Shown here piece after piece: positions 3,457 through 13,943 of a stretch of DNA of 42,356 nucleotides (position 1 is its first letter; the number at the start of each line of letters is the position of its first letter). The notes beneath the pieces are model-generated. The model saw nothing but the letters and a program-made list of their open reading frames with translations, did no database searches and was not told where the DNA came from. This stretch comes from Actinomycetes bacterium (GTDB taxonomy: Bacteria > Actinomycetota > Thermoleophilia > RBG-16-64-13). A program made the translations under genes and the position numbers. Location of the stretch: the NCBI GenBank assembly GCA_021802965.1, contig JAJZQZ010000003.1, positions 1-42,356 on the forward strand. The letters are read 5' to 3'.

Positions 3457-3722
3457 CAACCCTCTCGCTGCTGGGGCACGGCCGGATCCTCCGCGTCAGG
3501 TGGTCTTTCCCGGGATGTCGAGGGGCATCAGGAAGCAGAGTAACAGATACAGCGCGAGCACGATGATGTTGGACCCCGGCCCTCGGGATGGTTGCGTCGA
3601 CCCGACCCCGATGTTATTCTGCGGTCGAATGCCGTCATCTGGGATGTCTACCTTCCAGAGGCGTACCCGGGAGCACGGCACTCCGGCCGGTGGCCGTACT
3701 GTATTCCGCGCGCGAGCGCACG

Positions 3723-3761
3723 ACCGAGTCTGGTATCTGTCCCCAGAACTGGAACGGAAGG
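3723..3761 (+). promoter_or_regulatory. Candidate cis-regulatory leader hairpin plus RBS upstream of the DUF2520 operon
   Basis: AGTCTGG (3727-3733) pairs with CCAGAACT (3743-3750) with one bulged A, immediately followed by GGAACGGAAGG (SD-like GGAAGG at 3756-3761). Confidence 0.4.
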
Positions 3762-3768
3762 TCTTCTC

Positions 3769-4791
3769 ATCGTCGATCAGAATCCCCACGCTCGGGGGAT
3801 CTCTCCCTCTCCCCCTCGCTCCACCCTCGAGGCACTCCGCTTCGCCGTCATCGGCGCCGGTCGCCTGGGTACGTCGCTTGCGCTGGCGCTCCAGCAGGCC
3901 GGCGCGCAGCTCTCCGCCTACTCGTGCGCCACGTCGGCCGGGCTCCGCCGAGCGGCGGGCTTCCTCGGCGAGCTTGGCCACGCCGATATCCCCGGGATGG
4001 TAGCCGCCGGCGCCGGAACGACGCTGTACCTGGTCTGCGTGCCCGACGACGCGATCGAGCACGTGGCGGACACCCTCGCCGAGGCCCTCGCCGACGGCAC
4101 AAGCCCTGCAGCCCGGACGATCGGCGCCTCGTGGCCCCTCGCGGTCGCCCACACCAGCGGAGCCACCTCGACGGCCGCTCTCGCCGCATGCGGGCGCGCC
4201 GGCGCCTTGACCCTCGCGGTGCATCCCCTCCAGACCTTCAGCGACCCCGCCTCGGGGCCACGTCGCCTGGAGGGGACGGCGATGGCGGTGACGCCAGGGC
4301 TGCCCGAGACGGCCGGCGAGGCCTGGCTTCTCGGCGAGCGGATCGCCCACGCCGTCGGAGCACGGCCCTTCCTTCTCAAGGAAAAGGACCGCGTGCTCTA
4401 CCATGCGGCGGCCACGATCGCAAGCAACTATCTGGTCACTGTGGCCCACGTCGCGGAGGACCTGTTCACCCAGGCCGGCTTCCCCCCCGGCGAGGCTTTG
4501 CCTGCCCTCCTGCCTCTGATGCGTGGCGCCCTGGACAATCTGGCTCAGCAGGGCTCGGTCGCGGCTCTCACCGGACCGCTCAGCCGAGGCGACGTGGCCA
4601 CGGTCTCCGCCCACATCTCGGAGCTGGCCGACCGGGCTCCGGCACACCTCCCCATGTACCGCCGGCTGGGTGAGGCCACCCTGGAAATAGTGCGGTTGAG
4701 GGCGACGGTCGCTCCCGCGACCGTCGCCGCGCTCGCCGCTCTTCTCGCCGATACCCCTCTGCAGACCCTCACGAAGGAGGCCCTCCCATGA
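3769..4791 (+). CDS. Rossmann-like + DUF2520 oxidoreductase (PanG-type ketopantoate reductase candidate); start uncertain
   Basis: [50 protein letters not shown] and H...Y motifs. The ORF is open from TTG at 3592, but the RBS points to a codon near 3769. Confidence 0.88.
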
Positions 4792-5300
4792 ACCCCCGCC
4801 CGGCGGTCCTTGCCCCGGCCCACCCCACGCCCGCCCGCGCCGCCGCTCCGGCGGACGAGGTGACCGGGCCGCTCACCGTGAGCACCCATCGTCTCCGCTT
4901 CTCGACCCGGGGTGAGGGCGACGTGATCAACCTCACCGACGAGCTCGGCCAGGTGTTGCGGGAGACAGGGCTCATCGCCGGCACCCTCACCGTCTTCGCC
5001 CCGGGGGCGACGGGCGCGATCACGACCCTCGAGTTCGAGCCGGGCGCGGTGCGCGACTTTCAGCGCCTGTTCGATCAGATCGTCCCCCGCGACCAGCCGT
5101 ATGCCCACAATCTGCTTCTCAGCGACGGCAACGGACACTCGCACGTGCGCGCCGGTCTGCTCGGCCCCTCGGTCACCATCCCGTTCAGTGAGGGCCGCTT
5201 GTGCTTGGGCACCTGGCAGGAGGTGGTGTTCGTGTGCTTCGACGAACGACCGCGCGAGCGAACCGTGGTGGCGCAGGTGATGGGAGTGACAGCGGTATGA
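4788..5300 (+). CDS. YjbQ/UPF0047 family protein (secondary thiamine-phosphate synthase family)
   Basis: GATGAITTLEFEP, Y.H...DGNGHSHVRA.L.G.S and LGTWQ...FD..PRER motifs; ATGA overlap with the upstream gene. Confidence 0.92.
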   Translation: MNPRPAVLAPAHPTPARAAAPADEVTGPLTVSTHRLRFSTRGEGDVINLTDELGQVLRETGLIAGTLTVFAPGATGAITTLEFEPGAVRDFQRLFDQIVPRDQPYAHNLLLSDGNGHSHVRAGLLGPSVTIPFSEGRLCLGTWQEVVFVCFDERPRERTVVAQVMGVTAV

Positions 5301-6631
5301 GCTCAGCCGCCGAAAAGACCCCTCGAGCGAACAGCGCGAAACCCGGCGCTCCGCGACTGCAACTGGCTCTCGATTTCGTCGACCTGCCGCGGGCCCTCAA
5401 GGTTGCCGAGGAGGCGGTGCTCGGCGGCGCGGACTGGCTGGAGGCCGGGACTCCGCTCATCAAGAGCGAGGGGCTGCAGGCAGTCCGGGCCCTGCGCGAC
5501 CGCTGGCCCGAACACATCGTCGTGGCCGACATGAAGACCATGGACGCCGGCCGAGCCGAGGTCGAGTACGCGGCTAAAGCGGGGGCCCGCGTGGTGGGGG
5601 TGCTGGGGCTGGCCTCCGACGCCACCATCCGCGAGTGCGTCGAAGCCGGTCGCAACTACGGAGCCGAGATCATCGTGGACATGATCGGCGTGGCCGACCC
5701 GGTCGCCCGCGCCCGGGAGGTCGAGGCCCTTGGCGCCTCCTACGTGGGCATCCACGTGGCCATCGACGAGCAGATGGCCGGCAAGACGCCCTTCGACATC
5801 CTCCGGCAGGTGGCCGCCGCGGTCTCCATCCCCGTGGCCGTCGCGGGCGGCATCAATTCCGAGACCGCCGGCGAGGCGGTCGAGGCCGGCGCAGCCATCG
5901 TCATCGTGGGCGGCGCCATCACGAAGGCCACCGATGCCACCGAGGCCACGCGCCTGATCAAGCACGCGATCGCCCACCGGGTATCGGTGAAGTCAGACTA
6001 CTTCGTCCGCGCCAGCGGGGACGATCTGCGCGAGGTGCTCCTGCGGGTCTCCGCCGCCAACGTATCCGATGCACTCCACCGCTCGGGCGACCTTCCCGGC
6101 ATCGTCGCTCGAACGCCGGGCGCCAAGATGGTCGGACGGGCCGTGACGGTCCGCACCTATCCCGGTGACTGGGCAAAACCGGTGGAGGCCATCGACGTCG
6201 CCGAGGAAGGCGACGTGATCGTCATCGACGCCGGCGGCGTGCTGCCCGCGGTGTGGGGCGAGCTGGCGACGAACTCAGCGATCCAAAGAGGCTTGGCGGG
6301 CGTCGTCATCGCCGGAGCTGCCCGTGACACGGGCGATATCCGCGAGCTGGGTTTTCCGCTCTTTTCCTCCCACGTCACGCCCACTGCCGGCGAGCCCAAG
6401 GGTTTCGGCGAGATCGGCGTGCCCATCCGCATCGGAGGGGTGACGGTGTCGCCGGGCGACTGGATCGTCGGCGACGACGACGGGGTCTGCGTCATACCCA
6501 AGGAGAAAGCGGTCGAGTACACCAATCGGGCGATGGACGTCCTCGAACGAGAGAACCGGCTGCGGGGCGAGATCCTGGAGGGCAGCACGCTGAGCCAGGT
6601 CGCCTACCTCCTCAAGTGGGAGAAGAAGTAG
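5297..6631 (+). CDS. Bifunctional 3-hexulose-6-phosphate synthase / RraA (HMG-aldolase-like) fusion protein
   Basis: N-terminal HPS/KGPDC barrel: LQLALD, WLEAGTPLIKSEG, ADMKTMDAG..E, VAGGI, IVGGAIT. C-terminal RraA fold: NVSDAL, GRAVTV, AVWGELA, GAARD, PGDWIVGDDDGVCVIP. ATG at 5297 overlaps the yjbQ stop. Confidence 0.92.
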   Translation: MSSAAEKTPRANSAKPGAPRLQLALDFVDLPRALKVAEEAVLGGADWLEAGTPLIKSEGLQAVRALRDRWPEHIVVADMKTMDAGRAEVEYAAKAGARVVGVLGLASDATIRECVEAGRNYGAEIIVDMIGVADPVARAREVEALGASYVGIHVAIDEQMAGKTPFDILRQVAAAVSIPVAVAGGINSETAGEAVEAGAAIVIVGGAITKATDATEATRLIKHAIAHRVSVKSDYFVRASGDDLREVLLRVSAANVSDALHRSGDLPGIVARTPGAKMVGRAVTVRTYPGDWAKPVEAIDVAEEGDVIVIDAGGVLPAVWGELATNSAIQRGLAGVVIAGAARDTGDIRELGFPLFSSHVTPTAGEPKGFGEIGVPIRIGGVTVSPGDWIVGDDDGVCVIPKEKAVEYTNRAMDVLERENRLRGEILEGSTLSQVAYLLKWEKK

Positions 6632-6635
6632 CCCC

Positions 6636-7535
6636 CTAGGGCACCTTGACGAGCACGTTGTCGATGAGCCGTGTCGCGCCGAAGAACACCGCGGCGGCCA
6701 CGACGACCTCGCCTCTGACGACCTGCGGCTCTCTGAGGTCGTCCGCGGATACGACCTCGACGTAATCCACGCGGTCCGGGGGATCCTCGGCCAGGACCTT
6801 CAGGGCCGCGTCCTTGACAGCCCCGGCGTCGCGCTCACCCGACTCGAGGGCGTGTTGCGCAGCCCGGAGCGCCCGGTTCAGGATGGGAGCCCTCGCCCGC
6901 TGCTGCGGGGTGAGGTAGGCGTTGCGTGAGCTCATGGCCACGCCGTCGGCGTCGCGCACGATGGGGCATACGACCACCTCCACGCCCAGATCGAGGTCTG
7001 CGGCCATCCGACGGACGATCAGGGCCTGCTGGGCGTCCTTCTGCCCGAAGTAGGCGCGGTCCGGTCGACAGAGCGCGAACAGCTTGGTCACCACCGTCGC
7101 CACCCCGCGGAAGTGCCCAGGCCGGGCTCGTCCACACAGCACCTCCGACAAGCCCTCGACGTCGACCCAGGTGCAATGCCCCGGCGCGTACATCTCCTCT
7201 GCCGACGGGTGGAAGACGAGGTCCACTCCCTCGCCCGCCGCCAAGGAGAGGTCGCGATCCAGGTCGCGCGGGTAGCGGTCCAGGTCCTCGGCCGGGCCGA
7301 ACTGGGTGGGGTTGACGAAGATGGACATCACCACCAGGTCGTTCTCGACGCGCGCCCGCCGCGCGAGCGATAGGTGGCCCTCGTGCAGGAACCCCATGGT
7401 CGGCACCAGTCCGACCGAAAAAGGGCGGCCCTGGGCGATGCCGGCCACCCGGGCCGCCTCGAGCCGGGCCCGAAGGCCGTCCTTGCTCTCCACGACCTCG
7501 GGAAGCGACGCCGTCCCTTCGGGTGCGACCGTCAT
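6636..7535 (-). CDS. panC: Pantoate--beta-alanine ligase
   Basis: VPTMGFLHEGHLSL, SIFVNPTQF, RPGHFRGVATVV, FGQKDAQQ, MSSRN and TRLIDN motifs. True start taken as ATG 7535 within the longer 641-aa ORF. Confidence 0.97.
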   Translation of the reverse strand: MTVAPEGTASLPEVVESKDGLRARLEAARVAGIAQGRPFSVGLVPTMGFLHEGHLSLARRARVENDLVVMSIFVNPTQFGPAEDLDRYPRDLDRDLSLAAGEGVDLVFHPSAEEMYAPGHCTWVDVEGLSEVLCGRARPGHFRGVATVVTKLFALCRPDRAYFGQKDAQQALIVRRMAADLDLGVEVVVCPIVRDADGVAMSSRNAYLTPQQRARAPILNRALRAAQHALESGERDAGAVKDAALKVLAEDPPDRVDYVEVVSADDLREPQVVRGEVVVAAAVFFGATRLIDNVLVKVP

Positions 7536-7549
7536 GCCGTCTTCACCGA

Positions 7550-8542
7550 CTACAGATCCTCGAGGGCGGGGGCACCGTGCAGACTCCAGGCACAGCGGAC
7601 CGCGCGCCGGATAGAGCTCGCGACGGCATCGGCCGCCGCGCAGCCCAGCTGGAAGACGGTCACCGGCCGAAGGCCGGCGGAGAGGACGAACACCGCGTCG
7701 CCATCGATCGGGGTGTGGACGGGGCTGATCGCCCGGGCAAGCCCATCGTGCGCCATCCGCGCCACCTGACCGCACTGAGTCTTGTCCAGACGGGCGTCGG
7801 TGGCCACCACGGACAAGGTGGTGTGCTCGGCGCGAGCGTCGAAGCGGGGATGGTCCGAGACCGTCAGAACATAGGCATGGCTGTCGAGGAATCGCCCGTC
7901 GCGAACGGCGGCTCCCTCCCTGACCTCCTCGGGGCCCAGCCCGCCCGTGCGCGCCCCGGCCAGGATGGATCCATCCTCCGCCAGCACATCGCCGAACGCG
8001 TTGCAGACGGTCATGGCGGTGACGGTGACGCCACCCGGAAGAGCGACGCTGGCGACGCCGAAGCCGGACTTCATCCAGCCCTCCTCGCCCAGCATCTTGC
8101 CGACCGTCGCACCCGTTCCCACGCCCACCGACCCCTCCTCCACGGAGGCCGCCGCGGCCGCTGCCGCCCGATATCCGTCCTCGGCCCGGGGACGGCTCGT
8201 CGCATGGCCGAGTCCGAGATCGTAGATGACAGCGGCCGGGACCAGCGGGATCCGCCCGAAGGGGGTCTGGTAGCCGAAGCCCCGCTCCTCGAGATAGCGG
8301 ACCACGCCGTCGGCGGCGGCCAGGCCGAAAGCGCTCCCGCCGGCGAGCACCACCGCGTGAAGCTCGTTGACCGACGAGAACGGCGAGAGCAGATCCGTCT
8401 CGCGTGTCCCGGGTCCGCCGCCGCGCACTTCGAGGGACCCGACCACGCCGCGGGGAGCCACGACCACGGTGCAGCCGGTCCCGCCCACCGCGTCGGTGGC
8501 ATGCCCGACCAAGATCCCCTCGACCCCGATGAGGGCACTCAT
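7550..8542 (-). CDS. P1/S58 family (DmpA/ArgJ-like, ThnT-like) self-processing hydrolase
   Basis: VGHAT..GTGCTV, RGGGPGTRETDLL, GGSAFGL.AADGV, GSVGVGTGA, HTTLSVVATDA, AHDGLARAI.P.HT..DGD motifs. Confidence 0.92.
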   Translation of the reverse strand: MSALIGVEGILVGHATDAVGGTGCTVVVAPRGVVGSLEVRGGGPGTRETDLLSPFSSVNELHAVVLAGGSAFGLAAADGVVRYLEERGFGYQTPFGRIPLVPAAVIYDLGLGHATSRPRAEDGYRAAAAAAASVEEGSVGVGTGATVGKMLGEEGWMKSGFGVASVALPGGVTVTAMTVCNAFGDVLAEDGSILAGARTGGLGPEEVREGAAVRDGRFLDSHAYVLTVSDHPRFDARAEHTTLSVVATDARLDKTQCGQVARMAHDGLARAISPVHTPIDGDAVFVLSAGLRPVTVFQLGCAAADAVASSIRRAVRCAWSLHGAPALEDL

Positions 8543-8622: not shown

Positions 8623-10443
8623 CTACCGCGTGTTCTTGCGCAGGCCGTCGAGGAACTCGAAGTTCGACTTGGTGTCCTTGATCTTGTCGATGAGGAGCTC
8701 GATCGCCGCGTTCGGGTCGAGCGCGTGCAGCACGGAACGGAGCTTCCACACCATCTTGGACTCCGCGCCCTCCATGAGCAGCTCTTCCTTGCGCGTACCG
8801 CTCTTCTCGATGTCGATGGCCGGGAAGATCCGCTTGTTCGCCAGCTGGCGGGTCAGGTGGACCTCCCAGTTGCCCGTGCCCTTGAACTCCTCGAAGATGA
8901 CCTCGTCCATGCGCGAGCCCGTCTCGACGAGCGCCGTCGCGAGGATGGTCAGCGATCCGCCCTCCTCGATGTTGCGCGCGGCTCCGAAGAACTTCTTCGG
9001 CGGATACAGGGCGGTCGAGTCGACCCCGCCCGAGAGGATGCGCCCGGAGGCCGGCGCCGCCAGGTTGTACGCCCGCGCGAGCCGGGTGATGGAGTCCAGG
9101 AGCACCACGACGTCCTTGCCCACTTCCACCAAGCGCTTGACCCGCTCGAGCACCAGCTCGGTGACCTGCAGGTGGTTCTCCGAGGGCTGATCGAAGGTGG
9201 ATGAGACCACCTCCCCGTTGACCGAGCGCTCCATGTCGGTGACCTCCTCCGGGCGTTCGTCCACGAGCAGAACCAGGAGATGTACCTCGGGGTTGTTCTC
9301 GGCGATGGAGTTCGCTATCTCCTTCAAGATGGTGGTCTTGCCCGCCTTGGGAGGCGACACGATGAGACCGCGCTGGCCTTTCCCGAGCGGGCACACCAGG
9401 TCCATGATCCGGGGCGCTATGCGGTTCGGCTGGGTCTCGAGGCGCAGGCGCTGGTCGGGGAACAGCGGCGTGAGCTGCTCGAAGTTGGGCCGGTGCCGGG
9501 CCTGCTCGGGGTCGAGGCCGTTGACGGTCTGGATCTTGAGCAAAGCGTGGTACTTCTCGTTGTCCTTGGGCGTGCGCACCTGACCGGTGATCTCGTCGCC
9601 GCGGCGCAGCTTGAAGCGACGGATCTGCGAGAGAGACACGTAGATGTCGCTGTCGGACTGGGTGTACCCCTGCGTCCGCAGGAAGCCGAAGCCATCCGGA
9701 AGGACGTCGAGCAGTCCCGTGCGGTACTGCACCCCGCGGTCGGCCACCTGCTCCGACAGGATCTTCACGATCAAATCCTGCTTCGAGTACTTGCGGTAGT
9801 TCTTGATGCCCAGCTCCGACGCCACCACGTGCAGGTCGGACACGAGCCTCGGCTCGGTCTCGATGAGGTCGCCCCGCTCCCGGCTGTCGATCCGTTCCTG
9901 CCCCTCCGCGAGCGGGGGCCGGTCCGGGCGAGGCGGCCGCTGGGGCCTCTCCGGGCGCTCGAGCTGCTCAGGAAGCTCGGGGCGCACGGGTCGCCCCGCC
10001 TCCCCAGAGGCCGGGCGGTCAGAGGCCCCCACAGACGGACCTGCCGCCGCGCGGGCGACGGGAGCCTCAGAGCGCGCGACCGGAGCGTCGGCGCGTGTGG
10101 CGGGAGCCTCCCGGCCCGCGGCAGGGGGCTCAGCGCTCGCGGCAGGAGCGGGACCTTCGCCGTTCGTCGGTTCGGCGCGGGGCGTTCGGGCAGGACGCGC
10201 CGCCGCAGGGCGACGAGCGGGCGCGCGACGCGGTGCCGGCGCGCCGGCCTCGGCCTTCGCGGACGCCGCCGGTGCCGGAGGTTCGGAGGGAGCCTCCTTC
10301 TCAGGGGTGAGGGTAGCGGCGACGTCGCCGTCAGGGCCGGCGGGTTCGGCGGCGGAAGGTTCGGGCGCCACCACGGTGGTGGCGCCGTCCTCCGCGGTGG
10401 TCTTTTCTGTCTCTTCTACGGTCGGTTCCATGTCTGTTATCAC
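8623..10443 (-). CDS. rho: Transcription termination factor Rho with a long low-complexity N-terminal extension
   Basis: [63 protein letters not shown] and SGTRKEELL motifs. Start GTG 10443 (AGGAG upstream) or ATG 10431. Confidence 0.97.
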
Positions 10444-10493
10444 GTTCTCCTGGGGGTCATGGGTCGTGGGGGTCGTACCCCGGGTCGTCTTGT

Positions 10494-11528
10494 TCACAGC
10501 CGGATCTCCCGGCGTTCGTCTGAGAAAAGGTGGATAGTGTCGACGAAGCGCACGATCCGGCAGCGGGTACACATGGTCAGGGTGTGACTCCGGGCGCCCT
10601 CTCGAAAATAGTCCACTCCACGCAAGAAGTCGCCGCCGGTGACACCGGTGGCCGCGAAGACCACATCGCCGAGGACCAGGTCGTGCGTGTGCAGCACCAT
10701 CTCGATATCGTCGATGCCATGCTGCGCCGCCTTCTCGACCTCTCGGCGAGAGAGCGGCCACAGCTTTGCTTGGATCTGCCCGCCGAGGCAGCGCATAGCG
10801 GCTGCGGTCATCACTCCTTCGGCTGCACCCCCGATCCCGATGTACAGGTGGTCGCCCGTCCCGTCGACGGCAGCCGCTATCGAAGCCGTGATGTCACCGT
10901 CAGCGATGAGCTTGATACGTGCCCCCGCCTTGCGGATATCGGCCACCAAGCTCTCGTGTCGGGGCCGGTCGAGCATGATCACGGTGAGGTCGGCCACCGA
11001 CCGGTCGTAGGCCTGCGCGACTGCCATCAGATTGTCGGCTACCGGAGCCTCGATGTCGATGCTACCGGCGGCACGAGGACCGACGACCAGCTTCTGCATG
11101 TACATGTCGGGCAGGGAGAGGATCTGGCCGGGCGCGCCTACCACGAGGACGCTCATGGCCCCGCCCTGCCCGCGGGCCACCGTGTCGGTGCCCTCGAGGG
11201 GGTCGACCGCGATGTCGCAGTCCACGCTGCCGCTTCCGATGCGATCGCCCACGCGGATTCCTCCCGCGCTGCCTTCCTCACGTTCTCCGATCACCACCCG
11301 GGCGGTCACCGGCAGCTCTCGCAGAGCCGCCCGCATCGCTTCCGCGGCGGCCTCGTCGGCGACCACGCTGTCCCCTTGACCCATGAAGCGTCCCGCGGCG
11401 AGCGCCGCCGCTTCGGTCACACGGGTGAACTCGGCGCACAAGCATGGAGGGCCCATGCCGCTCTGGTCGACCTCCCCTGGGCTCGTCGACATCTCCCGGC
11501 TCCCTCTCCCGCCTCGGATCTCGCTCAC
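10494..11528 (-). CDS. glpX: Fructose-1,6-bisphosphatase class II
   Basis: [51 protein letters not shown] and FAATGVTGG motifs. Start may instead be ATG ~11457. Confidence 0.93.
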
Positions 11529-12478
11529 GCCACACCCGCCGCCGCTCGTGATTCAGACGCGGCGATGCGCTCGTACAGGGCATCGACGACGAGACCCACA
11601 GTGTCGTCGATGTTGACGTTCTCGATCAACAACGCACCTTCCTCAGCCGCGCGACCGATGATGAACTCCTGGATGCGCCGTATCTCTTCGAAGTTGGCCA
11701 GGTACCGACGCACGGGCCGCCGCCCGATGGTCTCGCGCTCGCGCACCAGGAAGTGGCTGCGGTGCAACTCGGCGTCGCGCACCACGACTATCATCGGCAG
11801 AACGACCGCGTTCTCCTTACCCGTCAAGGGCAGAAACCCCGGGACCACATGGACTCCCTCCACGATCAGGCTCGTCCCTTCCTTGACCGCCCGGTCGACG
11901 ATCGCGGCCAGGCCGACGTTCACCATCTCCACCTGCTCGACGAAGCCCACCACGTGCGGGTCCAGGTACGTCCCCATCGGCGCGCGAATGGCCTTGCCCG
12001 CGTCGAACGACGAGAAGTGGATCTCCGGCATGAGGGCTCGGGAGAAGAAGGTCCTCATCACCTGACGGATAGAGTCCGTGGAGATGATCCTGACGATGCC
12101 CATGCGGCTGGCAAGCTGGGTGGCGAGAGTGCTCTTGCCGACCCCGGTGGCGCCGCCGATCAAGATGATGACCGGCCGATCTTCGAGACCGAGTCGGTAC
12201 CACTTCTCGTAGCGCTGCAGGTAGTCCTGTCCTTCCATCTCCCCGAGGATGCGGGCGACGAATCCCTGGAGCTCGTCGATGCTCACACGGAGCACGCTGC
12301 GGCTGCGAAGCTCGCGTTCGACCTCCTGCGCCACCCGATAGGCCCGGTCAGGGGATAAGCCCGTCGCCGTCAGGGATTGCGCGAGGAGGCCCTTTGAAAA
12401 AGGGATCCCGTGCTGCTGGTTGACAATCTGGATCTGATCGCCACCCTCAGCGCTCGTCCTCTCGCTGCTCTCATCCAC
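11525..12478 (-). CDS. pgk2: 2-phosphoglycerate kinase (ATP-cone + P-loop)
   Basis: PFSKGLLAQSL ATP-cone-like N-terminus; ILIGGATGVGKSTLA, ISTDSIR, SSF, IVEGVH..PG, HRSHF..R and YL.NF..IR.IQ motifs; adjacent to cpgS. Confidence 0.9.
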   Translation of the reverse strand: MDESSERTSAEGGDQIQIVNQQHGIPFSKGLLAQSLTATGLSPDRAYRVAQEVERELRSRSVLRVSIDELQGFVARILGEMEGQDYLQRYEKWYRLGLEDRPVIILIGGATGVGKSTLATQLASRMGIVRIISTDSIRQVMRTFFSRALMPEIHFSSFDAGKAIRAPMGTYLDPHVVGFVEQVEMVNVGLAAIVDRAVKEGTSLIVEGVHVVPGFLPLTGKENAVVLPMIVVVRDAELHRSHFLVRERETIGRRPVRRYLANFEEIRRIQEFIIGRAAEEGALLIENVNIDDTVGLVVDALYERIAASESRAAAGVA

Positions 12479-13943
12479 GGCGTTCGTAGCGCTCCTGTGC
12501 TATCTCCGCCAACCGGCGGCACGTCTCGGCGAGATCGCCTTCCTGGGCCGGCGAGACCTCCCGGGGCTCGTTGTCCATGAAGACCACCGGCAGCTCTCGC
12601 CGTTCGGCTTCCACAGCCACCATGTCGATGGCCGCGGCCTTTATCTCGGTCAGGAACAGCTCCACATCGGTCGACTCCGCCGCCCGCAGATCGTCAGCCA
12701 GAGCACGCCGATCCGAGAGGTTGCCCGACCACAACCGGACAGTGCATCCATGCTCCTCTTCGAGGTGGCGCTTGAGCAAAGGTGCCTGGACACTCGGCGC
12801 GGTCGAGAAACAGGCCACTCTCCGCCCGGACACGTCCTGCGCCGGCCGATGCCGGAACACCACAGGGATGACCGGGATACCCGGCTTCTCCTGCGCCACC
12901 GCCGTCATCAAGTCTCGCACGGCACCAACGTCTGCAAGGGGCGCCTCCGCCATCGTCAAGACAACCGCATCGCTGATCAACACCCGGTACGTCCCCAGGT
13001 ACCCCGCCAGCTGCCCGCGAGGCTGATGGGCCCCGGCGACCAGTAGGCGGGCATCGGTGGCCACCGGCGGGATCGACGAACCGCTCCCTTCGAAGACCAC
13101 CATCCCGGCGCCCAGCTCGTTCGCCCGCAGGGCGCCTTCCGCCACGTTCGAGACCAACGGCTCCCCGGCGAGCCCACCGCCACACCGGCGGCATCCGACG
13201 GTGAGGACCCGGCTGAGGACGGCGTCCTCGAAGTGGTCGGAAGCGGCGTGACGACCCGCCCGACTCCACCTGAGTAACTCTTCGCTGCCCAGGGATACCG
13301 CGCTGCCATCTATCACTTCAGGTTCGGCCGGACCGCCTCGTCCCATGGCGACGACCACCACGGCCGGAGAAGCCCCGCCACCGCTGCGGGAGCCGGCTCC
13401 GGCTTCAGCGGTCTCACCCAGAAGCCTGGCCAGATACCCGCTGATCGCCGTCTTGCCGACACGTTTGCCTGTGCCGATGACAGAAAGCGACGGGGATGTG
13501 GCGATGCGGTCGAGCCGAGGGGGTGTGAAACGGAAGTCGGACCCTTCGTACGTGACGTTCCGGGCAAGAGTGTGGCTGATCAGCCGGAACCTACCCGGGT
13601 ACCCTACCACAGGCTCGTCGCTCGCGTCAACGACCACCTCGGGCCGGTACGAGTCGAGAGCCGCCGTCAACGCCGCGACCTGATCGGGGCCCGAGACGAC
13701 GGGCAGGTTATATATCCTCTCCGCCTCTGTCGCCCAGCGCCCCGGGTCGCTCGGCGCGACCTTCTCGGTCCCGCCGAGGAACACAGCCGCCAGGAAGCGA
13801 TAGCGCGGCGCCAGCTGCTCGAGAGCGTCCACCACGACGGGAGGGTAGTGCTCCCCGTCGATGAGGACCACCGCCGGGCGAGGGGAGCCCGGGTGTCCCG
13901 GCGCGGACCCGCCGCCGGCGCCCTCGCCCTCCGGGCTGCTCAC
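12471..13943 (-). CDS. cpgS: Cyclic 2,3-diphosphoglycerate synthetase
   Basis: LIDGEHYPPVV, GGTEK, SDEPV, GTGKRVGKTA, VAMGRGGP.EPE, HAASDHFEDA, GCRRCGGGLAG, EGSG..IPP and TEIKAAAID motifs, matching the archaeal cDPGS family. Confidence 0.92.
   Translation of the reverse strand: MSSPEGEGAGGGSAPGHPGSPRPAVVLIDGEHYPPVVVDALEQLAPRYRFLAAVFLGGTEKVAPSDPGRWATEAERIYNLPVVSGPDQVAALTAALDSYRPEVVVDASDEPVVGYPGRFRLISHTLARNVTYEGSDFRFTPPRLDRIATSPSLSVIGTGKRVGKTAISGYLARLLGETAEAGAGSRSGGGASPAVVVVAMGRGGPAEPEVIDGSAVSLGSEELLRWSRAGRHAASDHFEDAVLSRVLTVGCRRCGGGLAGEPLVSNVAEGALRANELGAGMVVFEGSGSSIPPVATDARLLVAGAHQPRGQLAGYLGTYRVLISDAVVLTMAEAPLADVGAVRDLMTAVAQEKPGIPVIPVVFRHRPAQDVSGRRVACFSTAPSVQAPLLKRHLEEEHGCTVRLWSGNLSDRRALADDLRAAESTDVELFLTEIKAAAIDMVAVEAERRELPVVFMDNEPREVSPAQEGDLAETCRRLAEIAQERYERRG

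Follow-up and report, generated by a model that had tools for sequence, protein, structure and literature searches.

We analysed a 42,356-nucleotide stretch of DNA (contig JAJZQZ010000003.1 of assembly GCA_021802965.1; hereafter the window) from a metagenome-assembled genome (MAG) of the class Thermoleophilia, which comprises 263 contigs and is 78% complete. A gene in this window encodes a 444-residue fusion protein of the PRK07028 type, with 3-hexulose-6-phosphate synthase (HPS) as its N-terminal domain and a domain of the RraA fold at the C-terminus. We propose that this fusion is a non-orthologous replacement of PanB, the ketopantoate hydroxymethyltransferase (KPHMT) of the synthesis of pantothenate (vitamin B5) as well as coenzyme A (CoA), and we put the probability of this at about 0.85. 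An earlier note on this DNA had suggested that the fusion replaces the folate-dependent PanB, and the suggestion is supported by the near-exclusion of the fusion and panB across genomes and by a recurrent context of pantothenate and CoA genes. The full mechanism, a folate-independent ketopantoate synthase fed by hexulose 6-phosphate, we consider probable.

In the proposed mechanism, the N-terminal HPS domain would cleave D-arabino-3-hexulose 6-phosphate to ribulose 5-phosphate and formaldehyde. The RraA-fold domain, acting as a metal-dependent class II aldolase, would then form the enolate of 2-oxoisovalerate and add the formaldehyde to it, giving ketopantoate (4-hydroxy-3,3-dimethyl-2-oxobutanoate). 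A co-transcribed DUF2520 reductase would convert ketopantoate to pantoate, which PanC would ligate with beta-alanine. HPS reversibly joins formaldehyde and ribulose 5-phosphate. Ketopantoate is a 4-hydroxy-2-oxo acid, the class of substrates cleaved or formed by the fold of the 4-hydroxy-4-methyl-2-oxoglutarate/4-carboxy-4-hydroxy-2-oxoadipate (HMG/CHA) aldolases; its cleavage between C3 and C4 yields the 2-oxoisovalerate enolate and formaldehyde, a type of reaction that RraA-fold HMG/CHA aldolases carry out with pyruvate. With one domain releasing formaldehyde and the other making a 2-oxo acid enolate, the fusion would pass a hydroxymethyl unit from hexulose 6-phosphate on to 2-oxoisovalerate, and no folate would be needed. 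In this scheme we infer which substrates are used, in which direction the HPS reaction runs, that formaldehyde goes from one domain to the other, and what the reductase does.

Distribution of the fusion and panB

The PanB profile (PF02548) gave no match in the window's genome, and the same profile found panB in 11 of 14 control genomes. panB was likewise not found in two genus mates of the window's genome (completeness 88% and 89%; one of the assemblies consists of 10 contigs). The fusion was scored as present only for a near-full-length match. Among the window's genome and 60 relatives of the class Thermoleophilia (n = 61), 32 carried the fusion only, 20 panB only, 8 both genes and one, a genome of 64% completeness, neither. 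The two genes alternate even within single genera of this class (g5, g9 and g16). The phylum of a Desulfobacteraceae MAG (G063; Desulfobacterota, n = 151) contained 14 genomes with the fusion only, 131 with panB only, none with both and 6 with neither, 3 of which also lacked panC. The archaeal phylum of a Hecatellales genome (G109, n = 151) had 8 genomes with the fusion only, 67 with panB only, none with both and 76 with neither.

A sample of 121 Planctomycetota included 47 genomes without panB, and the fusion was found in all 20 of these that were examined. Two of the 20 were already known carriers; the gene was full-length in 16 of the other 18, split over two contig ends in one and partial in one (profile positions 3–314). 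We also examined 49 fusion carriers from other phyla, comprising Desulfobacterota, Planctomycetota, Omnitrophota, Poribacteria, Aerophobetes, Ratteibacteria, Elusimicrobia and four archaea. None of them has panB (0/49), and panC is present in 41. The eight carriers without panC are four small MAGs and the four archaea, which employ another ligase. Methanosarcina acetivorans is the only one of the 14 named control genomes that has the fusion, and it is not among the panB-positive controls. The negative result for panB, which the earlier note had obtained for the window, extends to the rest of the incomplete genome and to its genus mates, and the anticorrelation envisaged there is seen as near mutual exclusion in four independent samples.

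Two Thermoleophilia genomes were considered as cases of reciprocal gene decay. In G010 (C8:57635–58879) the fusion gene is interrupted by a stop codon and by changes of frame, and panB is intact; in G019 (C12:15686–16407) panB is fragmented and the fusion is intact. We did not use them as evidence, because assembly frameshifts are as likely: both genomes have a split tsaD as well. In G010 it shares a contig with the broken fusion (L040); in G019 it belongs to the fusion locus (L016), which lies on another contig than its panB.

Gene neighbourhoods of the fusion

The reductase gene, yjbQ and the fusion gene of the window (Table 1) are joined by ATGA stop/start overlaps at 4788–4791 (reductase/yjbQ) and 5297–5300 (yjbQ/fusion), in agreement with the translational coupling reported in the earlier note. 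Also as reported there, the operon and the convergent panC have their stops 4 nt apart: the TAG stop of the fusion occupies 6629–6631 and the reverse-complement stop of panC 6636–6638. All four genes had been placed correctly in that note; the part that did not stand is the reductase start at position 3769, where the codon is ATC and hence non-canonical. The true start is uncertain because the sole ATG, GTG or TTG codon in the reductase frame is the TTG at 3592, yet a GGAAGG sequence lies 8 nt upstream of 3769.

Table 1. Genes and protein domains discussed in the text, with their positions in the window.
Feature	Position	Strand	Evidence
DUF2520/Rossmann-like NAD(P) oxidoreductase, candidate ketopantoate reductase (PanG-like)	3592..4791 (start uncertain)	+	PF10728, 116.7 bits; PF10727, 37.3 bits
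YjbQ/UPF0047	4788..5300	+	PF01894, 105.8 bits; TIGR00149, 90.6 bits (above the cut-off of 67.75)
HPS::RraA fusion, PRK07028 family, 444 residues; proposed folate-independent ketopantoate-forming enzyme	5297..6631	+	Domain matches, AlphaFold2 model, fold matches
3-Hexulose-6-phosphate synthase domain of the fusion (residues 19–229)	5351..5983	+	TIGR03128, 222.5 bits (cut-off 200); D78-x-K80-x-x-D83 motif
RraA-fold class II aldolase-like domain of the fusion (residues 241–444)	6017..6628	+	PF03737, 158.5 bits; R343-D344 (GAARD); GDWAKPVEA
panC, pantoate–beta-alanine ligase	6636..7535	-	PF02569, 352.6 bits; TIGR00018, 333.4 bits (cut-off 212.75)
Peptidase_S58 (DmpA-type) gene, directly upstream of panC	7550..8542	-	PF03576, 141 bits

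All 40 loci taken from related genomes show the order DUF2520-yjbQ-fusion or some variant of this order, and the arrangement is not due to chance. yjbQ adjoins the fusion in every one of these loci, and the region fetched includes panC in 34, at least two of the other six being cut by a contig end. In the family f3 (5 loci) the genes form a same-strand operon in the order DUF2520-panC-yjbQ-fusion, and in the family f6 (4 loci) the order is panC-yjbQ-fusion. Three loci (L051, L052 and L078) have panD between panC and yjbQ; the panD of the window's genome is on another contig.

Because the neighbourhood in Thermoleophilia could be inherited synteny, we clustered all open reading frames (ORFs) within 5 kb of the fusion in 61 loci outside this class. 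tblastn searches of these 61 loci with the PanC, PanD and DUF2520 proteins of the window and the PanB of a relative gave no match; the clustering revealed PanE and 6-phospho-3-hexuloisomerase (PHI) as neighbours. In five loci, from Hecatellales, Nitrososphaerota, an Asgard Atabeyarchaeia chromosome and two bacteria, the gene directly downstream of the fusion, on the strand of the fusion, encodes a PanE/ApbA ketopantoate reductase. PanE, which in these loci is not homologous to DUF2520, takes the place of DUF2520 there. The two of the five loci that were scanned with NCBIfam, L120 and L122, both exceed the TIGR00745 cut-off. In L120 (Asgard), genes for a pantoate-kinase-like protein, phosphopantothenate synthetase (PPS), the fusion, PanE and an MfnA-type decarboxylase follow one another on one strand; in L122 (Hecatellales), the genes for PPS, the fusion, PanE and CoaBC stand in this order and overlap. 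The characterised archaeal gene set, as given in an excerpt of PMC6650551, consists of KPHMT, ketopantoate reductase, a decarboxylase, pantoate kinase and PPS. The fusion occupies the place of KPHMT in the two archaeal operons. Co-location with pantothenate genes, which the earlier note had anticipated, is therefore found in three forms: with DUF2520, panC and panD in Thermoleophilia, with PanE in five loci, and with pantoate kinase, PPS and CoaBC in archaea.

Other neighbours also recur. In seven Planctomycetota loci (L064, L086, L097, L101, L110, L117 and L118; including Scalindua, Jettenia and Brocadiales), a gene for 6-pyruvoyl-tetrahydropterin synthase (PF01242) shares the strand of the fusion and is found 6–171 nt upstream of it. 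In three Omnitrophota loci and one from Planctomycetia (L061, L065, L071 and L083), yjbQ and the fusion stand just downstream of Wood–Ljungdahl genes identified by Pfam (CdhD and a pterin-binding methyltransferase). A conserved ORF cluster (cluster 14), CooC-like as judged by eye only, is also upstream in these four loci, and a DRTGG/AAA_26 protein follows yjbQ-fusion.

Domains, motifs and predicted structure

Pfam places an OMPdecase/HUMPS domain at residues 19–219 of the fusion and an RraA-like domain at residues 254–399. The HPS domain exceeds the HxlA equivalog-domain cut-off (TIGR03128, residues 21–225), aligns over its full length with the solved HPS structures 3AJX, 3F4W and 9LJ9, and matches an archaeal HPS-PHI protein at an E-value of 1e-62. 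PDB entry 9LJ9 (426 residues) was considered as a solved structure of the fusion and rejected, as it is an HPS-PHI fusion. The sequence ADMKTMD, which contains D78, K80 and D83, is identical to that of 3AJX, and these three residues together with E49 are invariant in alignments of 9 and 33 fusion sequences (A2 and A3). We take the D-x-K-x-x-D motif and the upstream glutamate to be the active-site residues of the orotidine 5'-monophosphate decarboxylase suprafamily.

In the RraA-fold domain, R343 and D344 of the GAARD motif align with R123 and D124 of the solved HMG/CHA aldolase 3NOJ, presumably the catalytic arginine and the metal-binding aspartate of that enzyme, so that the Arg-Asp pair is retained as the earlier note had read it. 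Both residues are invariant in the same two alignments, and GDWAKPVEA is a further invariant motif of this domain. The fusion scores below the equivalog cut-offs for RraA, the regulator of RNase E (NF006875, 67.4 vs 136; TIGR02998, 40 vs 241), and far under those for the LigK/ProA HMG/CHA aldolases (TIGR02798, 91.1 vs 304.5; NF006731, 100.3 vs 179). It has no homology to PanB, its domains belonging to other folds than PF02548. The AlphaFold2 model of the fusion has a predicted local distance difference test (pLDDT) value of 90 and a predicted template modelling score (pTM) of 0.78. Foldseek matched the HPS half of the model to 3F4W and 3AJX with a template modelling (TM) score of 0.93, and the C-terminal half to the RraA-like protein 3K4I (TM 0.84–0.87) and to the HMG/CHA aldolase 3NOJ (TM 0.80). 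The sequence is consistent with the proposed chemistry: its HPS domain scores above the HxlA threshold, and the Arg-Asp pair of the aldolase is retained.

Two further observations concern the family. A distant subfamily of full-length fusions (P0176, P0190, P0199, P0208 and P0235), with 26–32% identity, has lost the arginine of the Arg-Asp pair (GSITD, GAISD or GTVTE) and lacks several HPS motif residues as well; its members may be non-catalytic or repurposed. A Planctomycetota genome (G447, C30:11140–13975) has a second, HPS-only match (profile positions 2–225) about 0.9 kb from its full-length fusion.

The candidate reductase of the window contains a DUF2520 domain and an N-terminal Rossmann-like domain, and the DUF2520 gene adjoins panC in relatives. 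In these respects it resembles PanG, the DUF2520-type ketopantoate reductase. The window's genome differs in having four PanE/ApbA-family genes besides (contigs C28, C208, C139 and C201 of G000). A DUF2520 protein is equated with the PanG homologues FTT1388 and EF1861 in an excerpt of PMC4572677.

Hexulose 6-phosphate supply and alternative explanations

A sugar-phosphate donor for the fusion is supported by PHI, which stands directly upstream of the fusion and is co-transcribed with it in 13 Desulfobacterota loci (TIGR03127, 182.6 vs 160) and gives a strong match in 35 of the 49 carriers of other phyla. The same profile found no PHI at E ≤ 1e-10 in any of the 61 Thermoleophilia-class genomes, nor a strong match in the remaining 14 of the 49 carriers. 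The fusion and its catalytic motifs are nevertheless fully conserved in these PHI-less genomes, and this might suggest that the fusion replaces PanB with another source of the one-carbon unit, either free formaldehyde or a donor other than hexulose 6-phosphate. The RraA-fold domain would still make ketopantoate, and the HPS domain might serve as a formaldehyde buffer or carrier via ribulose 5-phosphate, or might have changed its substrate. We regard this as unlikely in view of the high HxlA score of the HPS domain, its match to an archaeal HPS-PHI protein and the co-transcription with PHI in 13 loci; moreover, free formaldehyde has no evident endogenous source.

The same 13 PHI-adjacent loci could also be read in terms of pentose and formaldehyde metabolism, and most loci outside Thermoleophilia have no pantothenate genes as neighbours. 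In such a case a reverse ribulose-monophosphate pathway, the direction ascribed to the Fae-HPS fusions of methanogens, would lead to ribulose 5-phosphate, the aldolase domain would put formaldehyde onto pyruvate, and the link to panB would be indirect. This explanation is very unlikely. It leaves unaccounted for both the absence of panB from all carriers in three samples (0/49, 0/14 and 0/8), against its presence in 131 of the 137 non-carrier Desulfobacterota, and the position of the fusion between PPS and PanE in archaeal operons. Least probable of all, and only barely credible, is that the panB-less genomes salvage pantoate or pantothenate and share no more than ancestry or habitat with an unrelated fusion: half of the archaeal sample (76/151) lives without either gene and most carriers are uncultured anaerobes from communities, but panC is kept in 41 of the 49 carriers and panD in the window's genome, the pattern recurs in at least four phyla, fusion and panB alternate within the three Thermoleophilia genera, and the operon context argues for a direct role.

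Several points weigh against the replacement of PanB by the fusion, or against parts of the mechanism. The replacement is a prediction from sequence, and the window's own genome is only 78% complete. On the PRK07028 profile (NF005442) the fusion scores 590.1 bits against a cut-off of 593, over positions 4–429 of 430; its relatives score 564–602 bits, and by sequence it belongs to the family in all but the last 3 bits. The exclusion of the two genes is not strict, since 8 of the 40 Thermoleophilia carriers also have panB and the fusion was found in one of the seven panB-positive Planctomycetota tested. Three Desulfobacterota with panC have neither panB nor the fusion, even at an E-value of 1e-15, and together with the 76 archaea without both genes they imply that other routes or salvage must exist. 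Fisher tests of the fusion against panB gave p = 0.009 to 2e-15, values that overstate the significance because the sampled genomes are related to one another; the recurrence in at least four phyla is the stronger argument. Outside Thermoleophilia and the five PanE loci, the neighbours of the fusion are unrelated to pantothenate. With four PanE-family proteins in the window's genome, the DUF2520 protein need not be the reductase that is used. Finally, with no PHI found in any of the 61 genomes, the mechanism has a gap in the window's lineage at the supply of hexulose 6-phosphate.

For this supply, YjbQ might be considered. yjbQ adjoins the fusion only in genomes without PHI, namely in the 40 Thermoleophilia loci and in 5 of the 14 PHI-less carriers, as compared with 0 of the 35 PHI-containing ones. 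We know of no established physiological function of YjbQ. The presence of the family does not discriminate, as it occurs in 45 of the 49 carriers, often as paralogues. In a FastTree phylogeny of 119 YjbQ rows, all 38 fusion-adjacent copies fall into one major clade of 63 rows; that clade is also found in 17 of the 35 PHI-containing genomes, which speaks against an isomerase role. A predicted complex of the fusion and YjbQ scored 0.00, below the mark, a value that counts neither for nor against binding. An excerpt of PMC3010111 describes a weak thiamine-phosphate synthase side activity of YjbQ and its action as a multicopy suppressor of a pdxB deletion. That YjbQ is the missing isomerase of fructose 6-phosphate and hexulose 6-phosphate, replacing PHI, is doubtful. 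We are equally hesitant about the locus as a complete PanB-free and folate-free pantoate module, in which YjbQ would supply hexulose 6-phosphate, the fusion would transfer formaldehyde to 2-oxoisovalerate and the DUF2520 protein would reduce the product.

Other features of the window

The window has a G+C content of 66–71%. The minus-strand genes upstream of panC are, in order, Peptidase_S58, rho and glpX. The Peptidase_S58 gene is probably co-transcribed with panC, and this pairing is kept in most relatives of family f1. Some members of the Peptidase_S58 family release beta-amino acids, and a role in the supply of beta-alanine is conceivable. The rho ORF (8623–10761, minus strand) encodes 712 residues, and its Rho domains begin only at about residue 307, so that the protein has either a long N-terminal extension or a mis-called start. 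A minus-strand ORF of 490 residues (12471–13943) has no Pfam match at E ≤ 0.001. On the upstream side of the plus-strand genes, the minus strand carries tsaD-rimI-tsaB-tsaE and a gene for uracil-DNA glycosylase.

Relation to known enzymes and implications

To our knowledge, no enzyme other than PanB is known to form ketopantoate. The fusion would share with PanB (PF02548) the net reaction, from 2-oxoisovalerate and a one-carbon unit to ketopantoate, and a metal-assisted enolisation; it has the same position in the pathway and in operons, and the distributions of the two are complementary. Despite these likenesses, the two proteins have no relation in sequence or fold, and PanB takes its one-carbon unit from 5,10-methylene-tetrahydrofolate, whereas the donor proposed for the fusion is formaldehyde released from a sugar phosphate by the fused domain. 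The Fae-HPS proteins of methanogens (PRK13307) and the HPS-PHI proteins (NF041755; PDB 9LJ9) contain the same HPS domain, likewise fused to an enzyme acting on the substrate of HPS or on formaldehyde, the product. In our protein, however, the partner is an RraA-fold aldolase rather than Fae or PHI, and the proposed acceptor is a 2-oxo acid enolate rather than tetrahydromethanopterin. The HMG/CHA aldolases LigK/ProA (3NOJ) and the RraA-like proteins (PF03737; 3K4I) resemble the C-terminal domain in fold (TM 0.80–0.87), in the Arg-Asp pair and in the 4-hydroxy-2-oxo acid class of substrates. Unlike LigK/ProA, the domain is fused to HPS, has its own GDWAKPVEA motif and falls far under the equivalog cut-offs, and its proposed nucleophile is derived from 2-oxoisovalerate instead of pyruvate.

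In the Creative Commons-licensed literature of PubMed Central and bioRxiv, a scope that left subscription journals outside, we found no report tying HPS-RraA fusions, or any aldolase, to natural ketopantoate synthesis. The PRK07028 family is catalogued, and its name carries no pathway role. On present evidence, the fusion is predicted to be a new kind of enzyme carrying out the step that commits to vitamin B5 synthesis, the first such step of the pathway.

PanB counts as the universal first step in the synthesis of pantothenate and CoA, and genome-based metabolic models use it to mark B5 prototrophy. If the fusion does replace PanB, many organisms that are currently rated as B5 auxotrophs, or to which a gap in the pathway is assigned, would be prototrophs. 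In the samples searched, these would include about one tenth of Desulfobacterota, more than one third of Planctomycetota, the anammox genera among them, and most Thermoleophilia, as well as Methanosarcina acetivorans, some Asgard archaea and some archaea of the Hecatellales phylum. Should the locus even constitute the complete module with YjbQ, which we doubt, the fusion would explain how pantoate is made in Methanosarcina, anammox bacteria, many Desulfobacterota, Omnitrophota and Asgard archaea. A widespread family, now under the annotation "hexulose-6-phosphate synthase/ribonuclease regulator", would have a real function, and biocatalysis could make use of a natural enzyme for the addition of formaldehyde to a branched 2-oxo acid. 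The synthesis of CoA would be uncoupled from folate one-carbon metabolism, which would bear on archaea that use methanopterin instead of folate.

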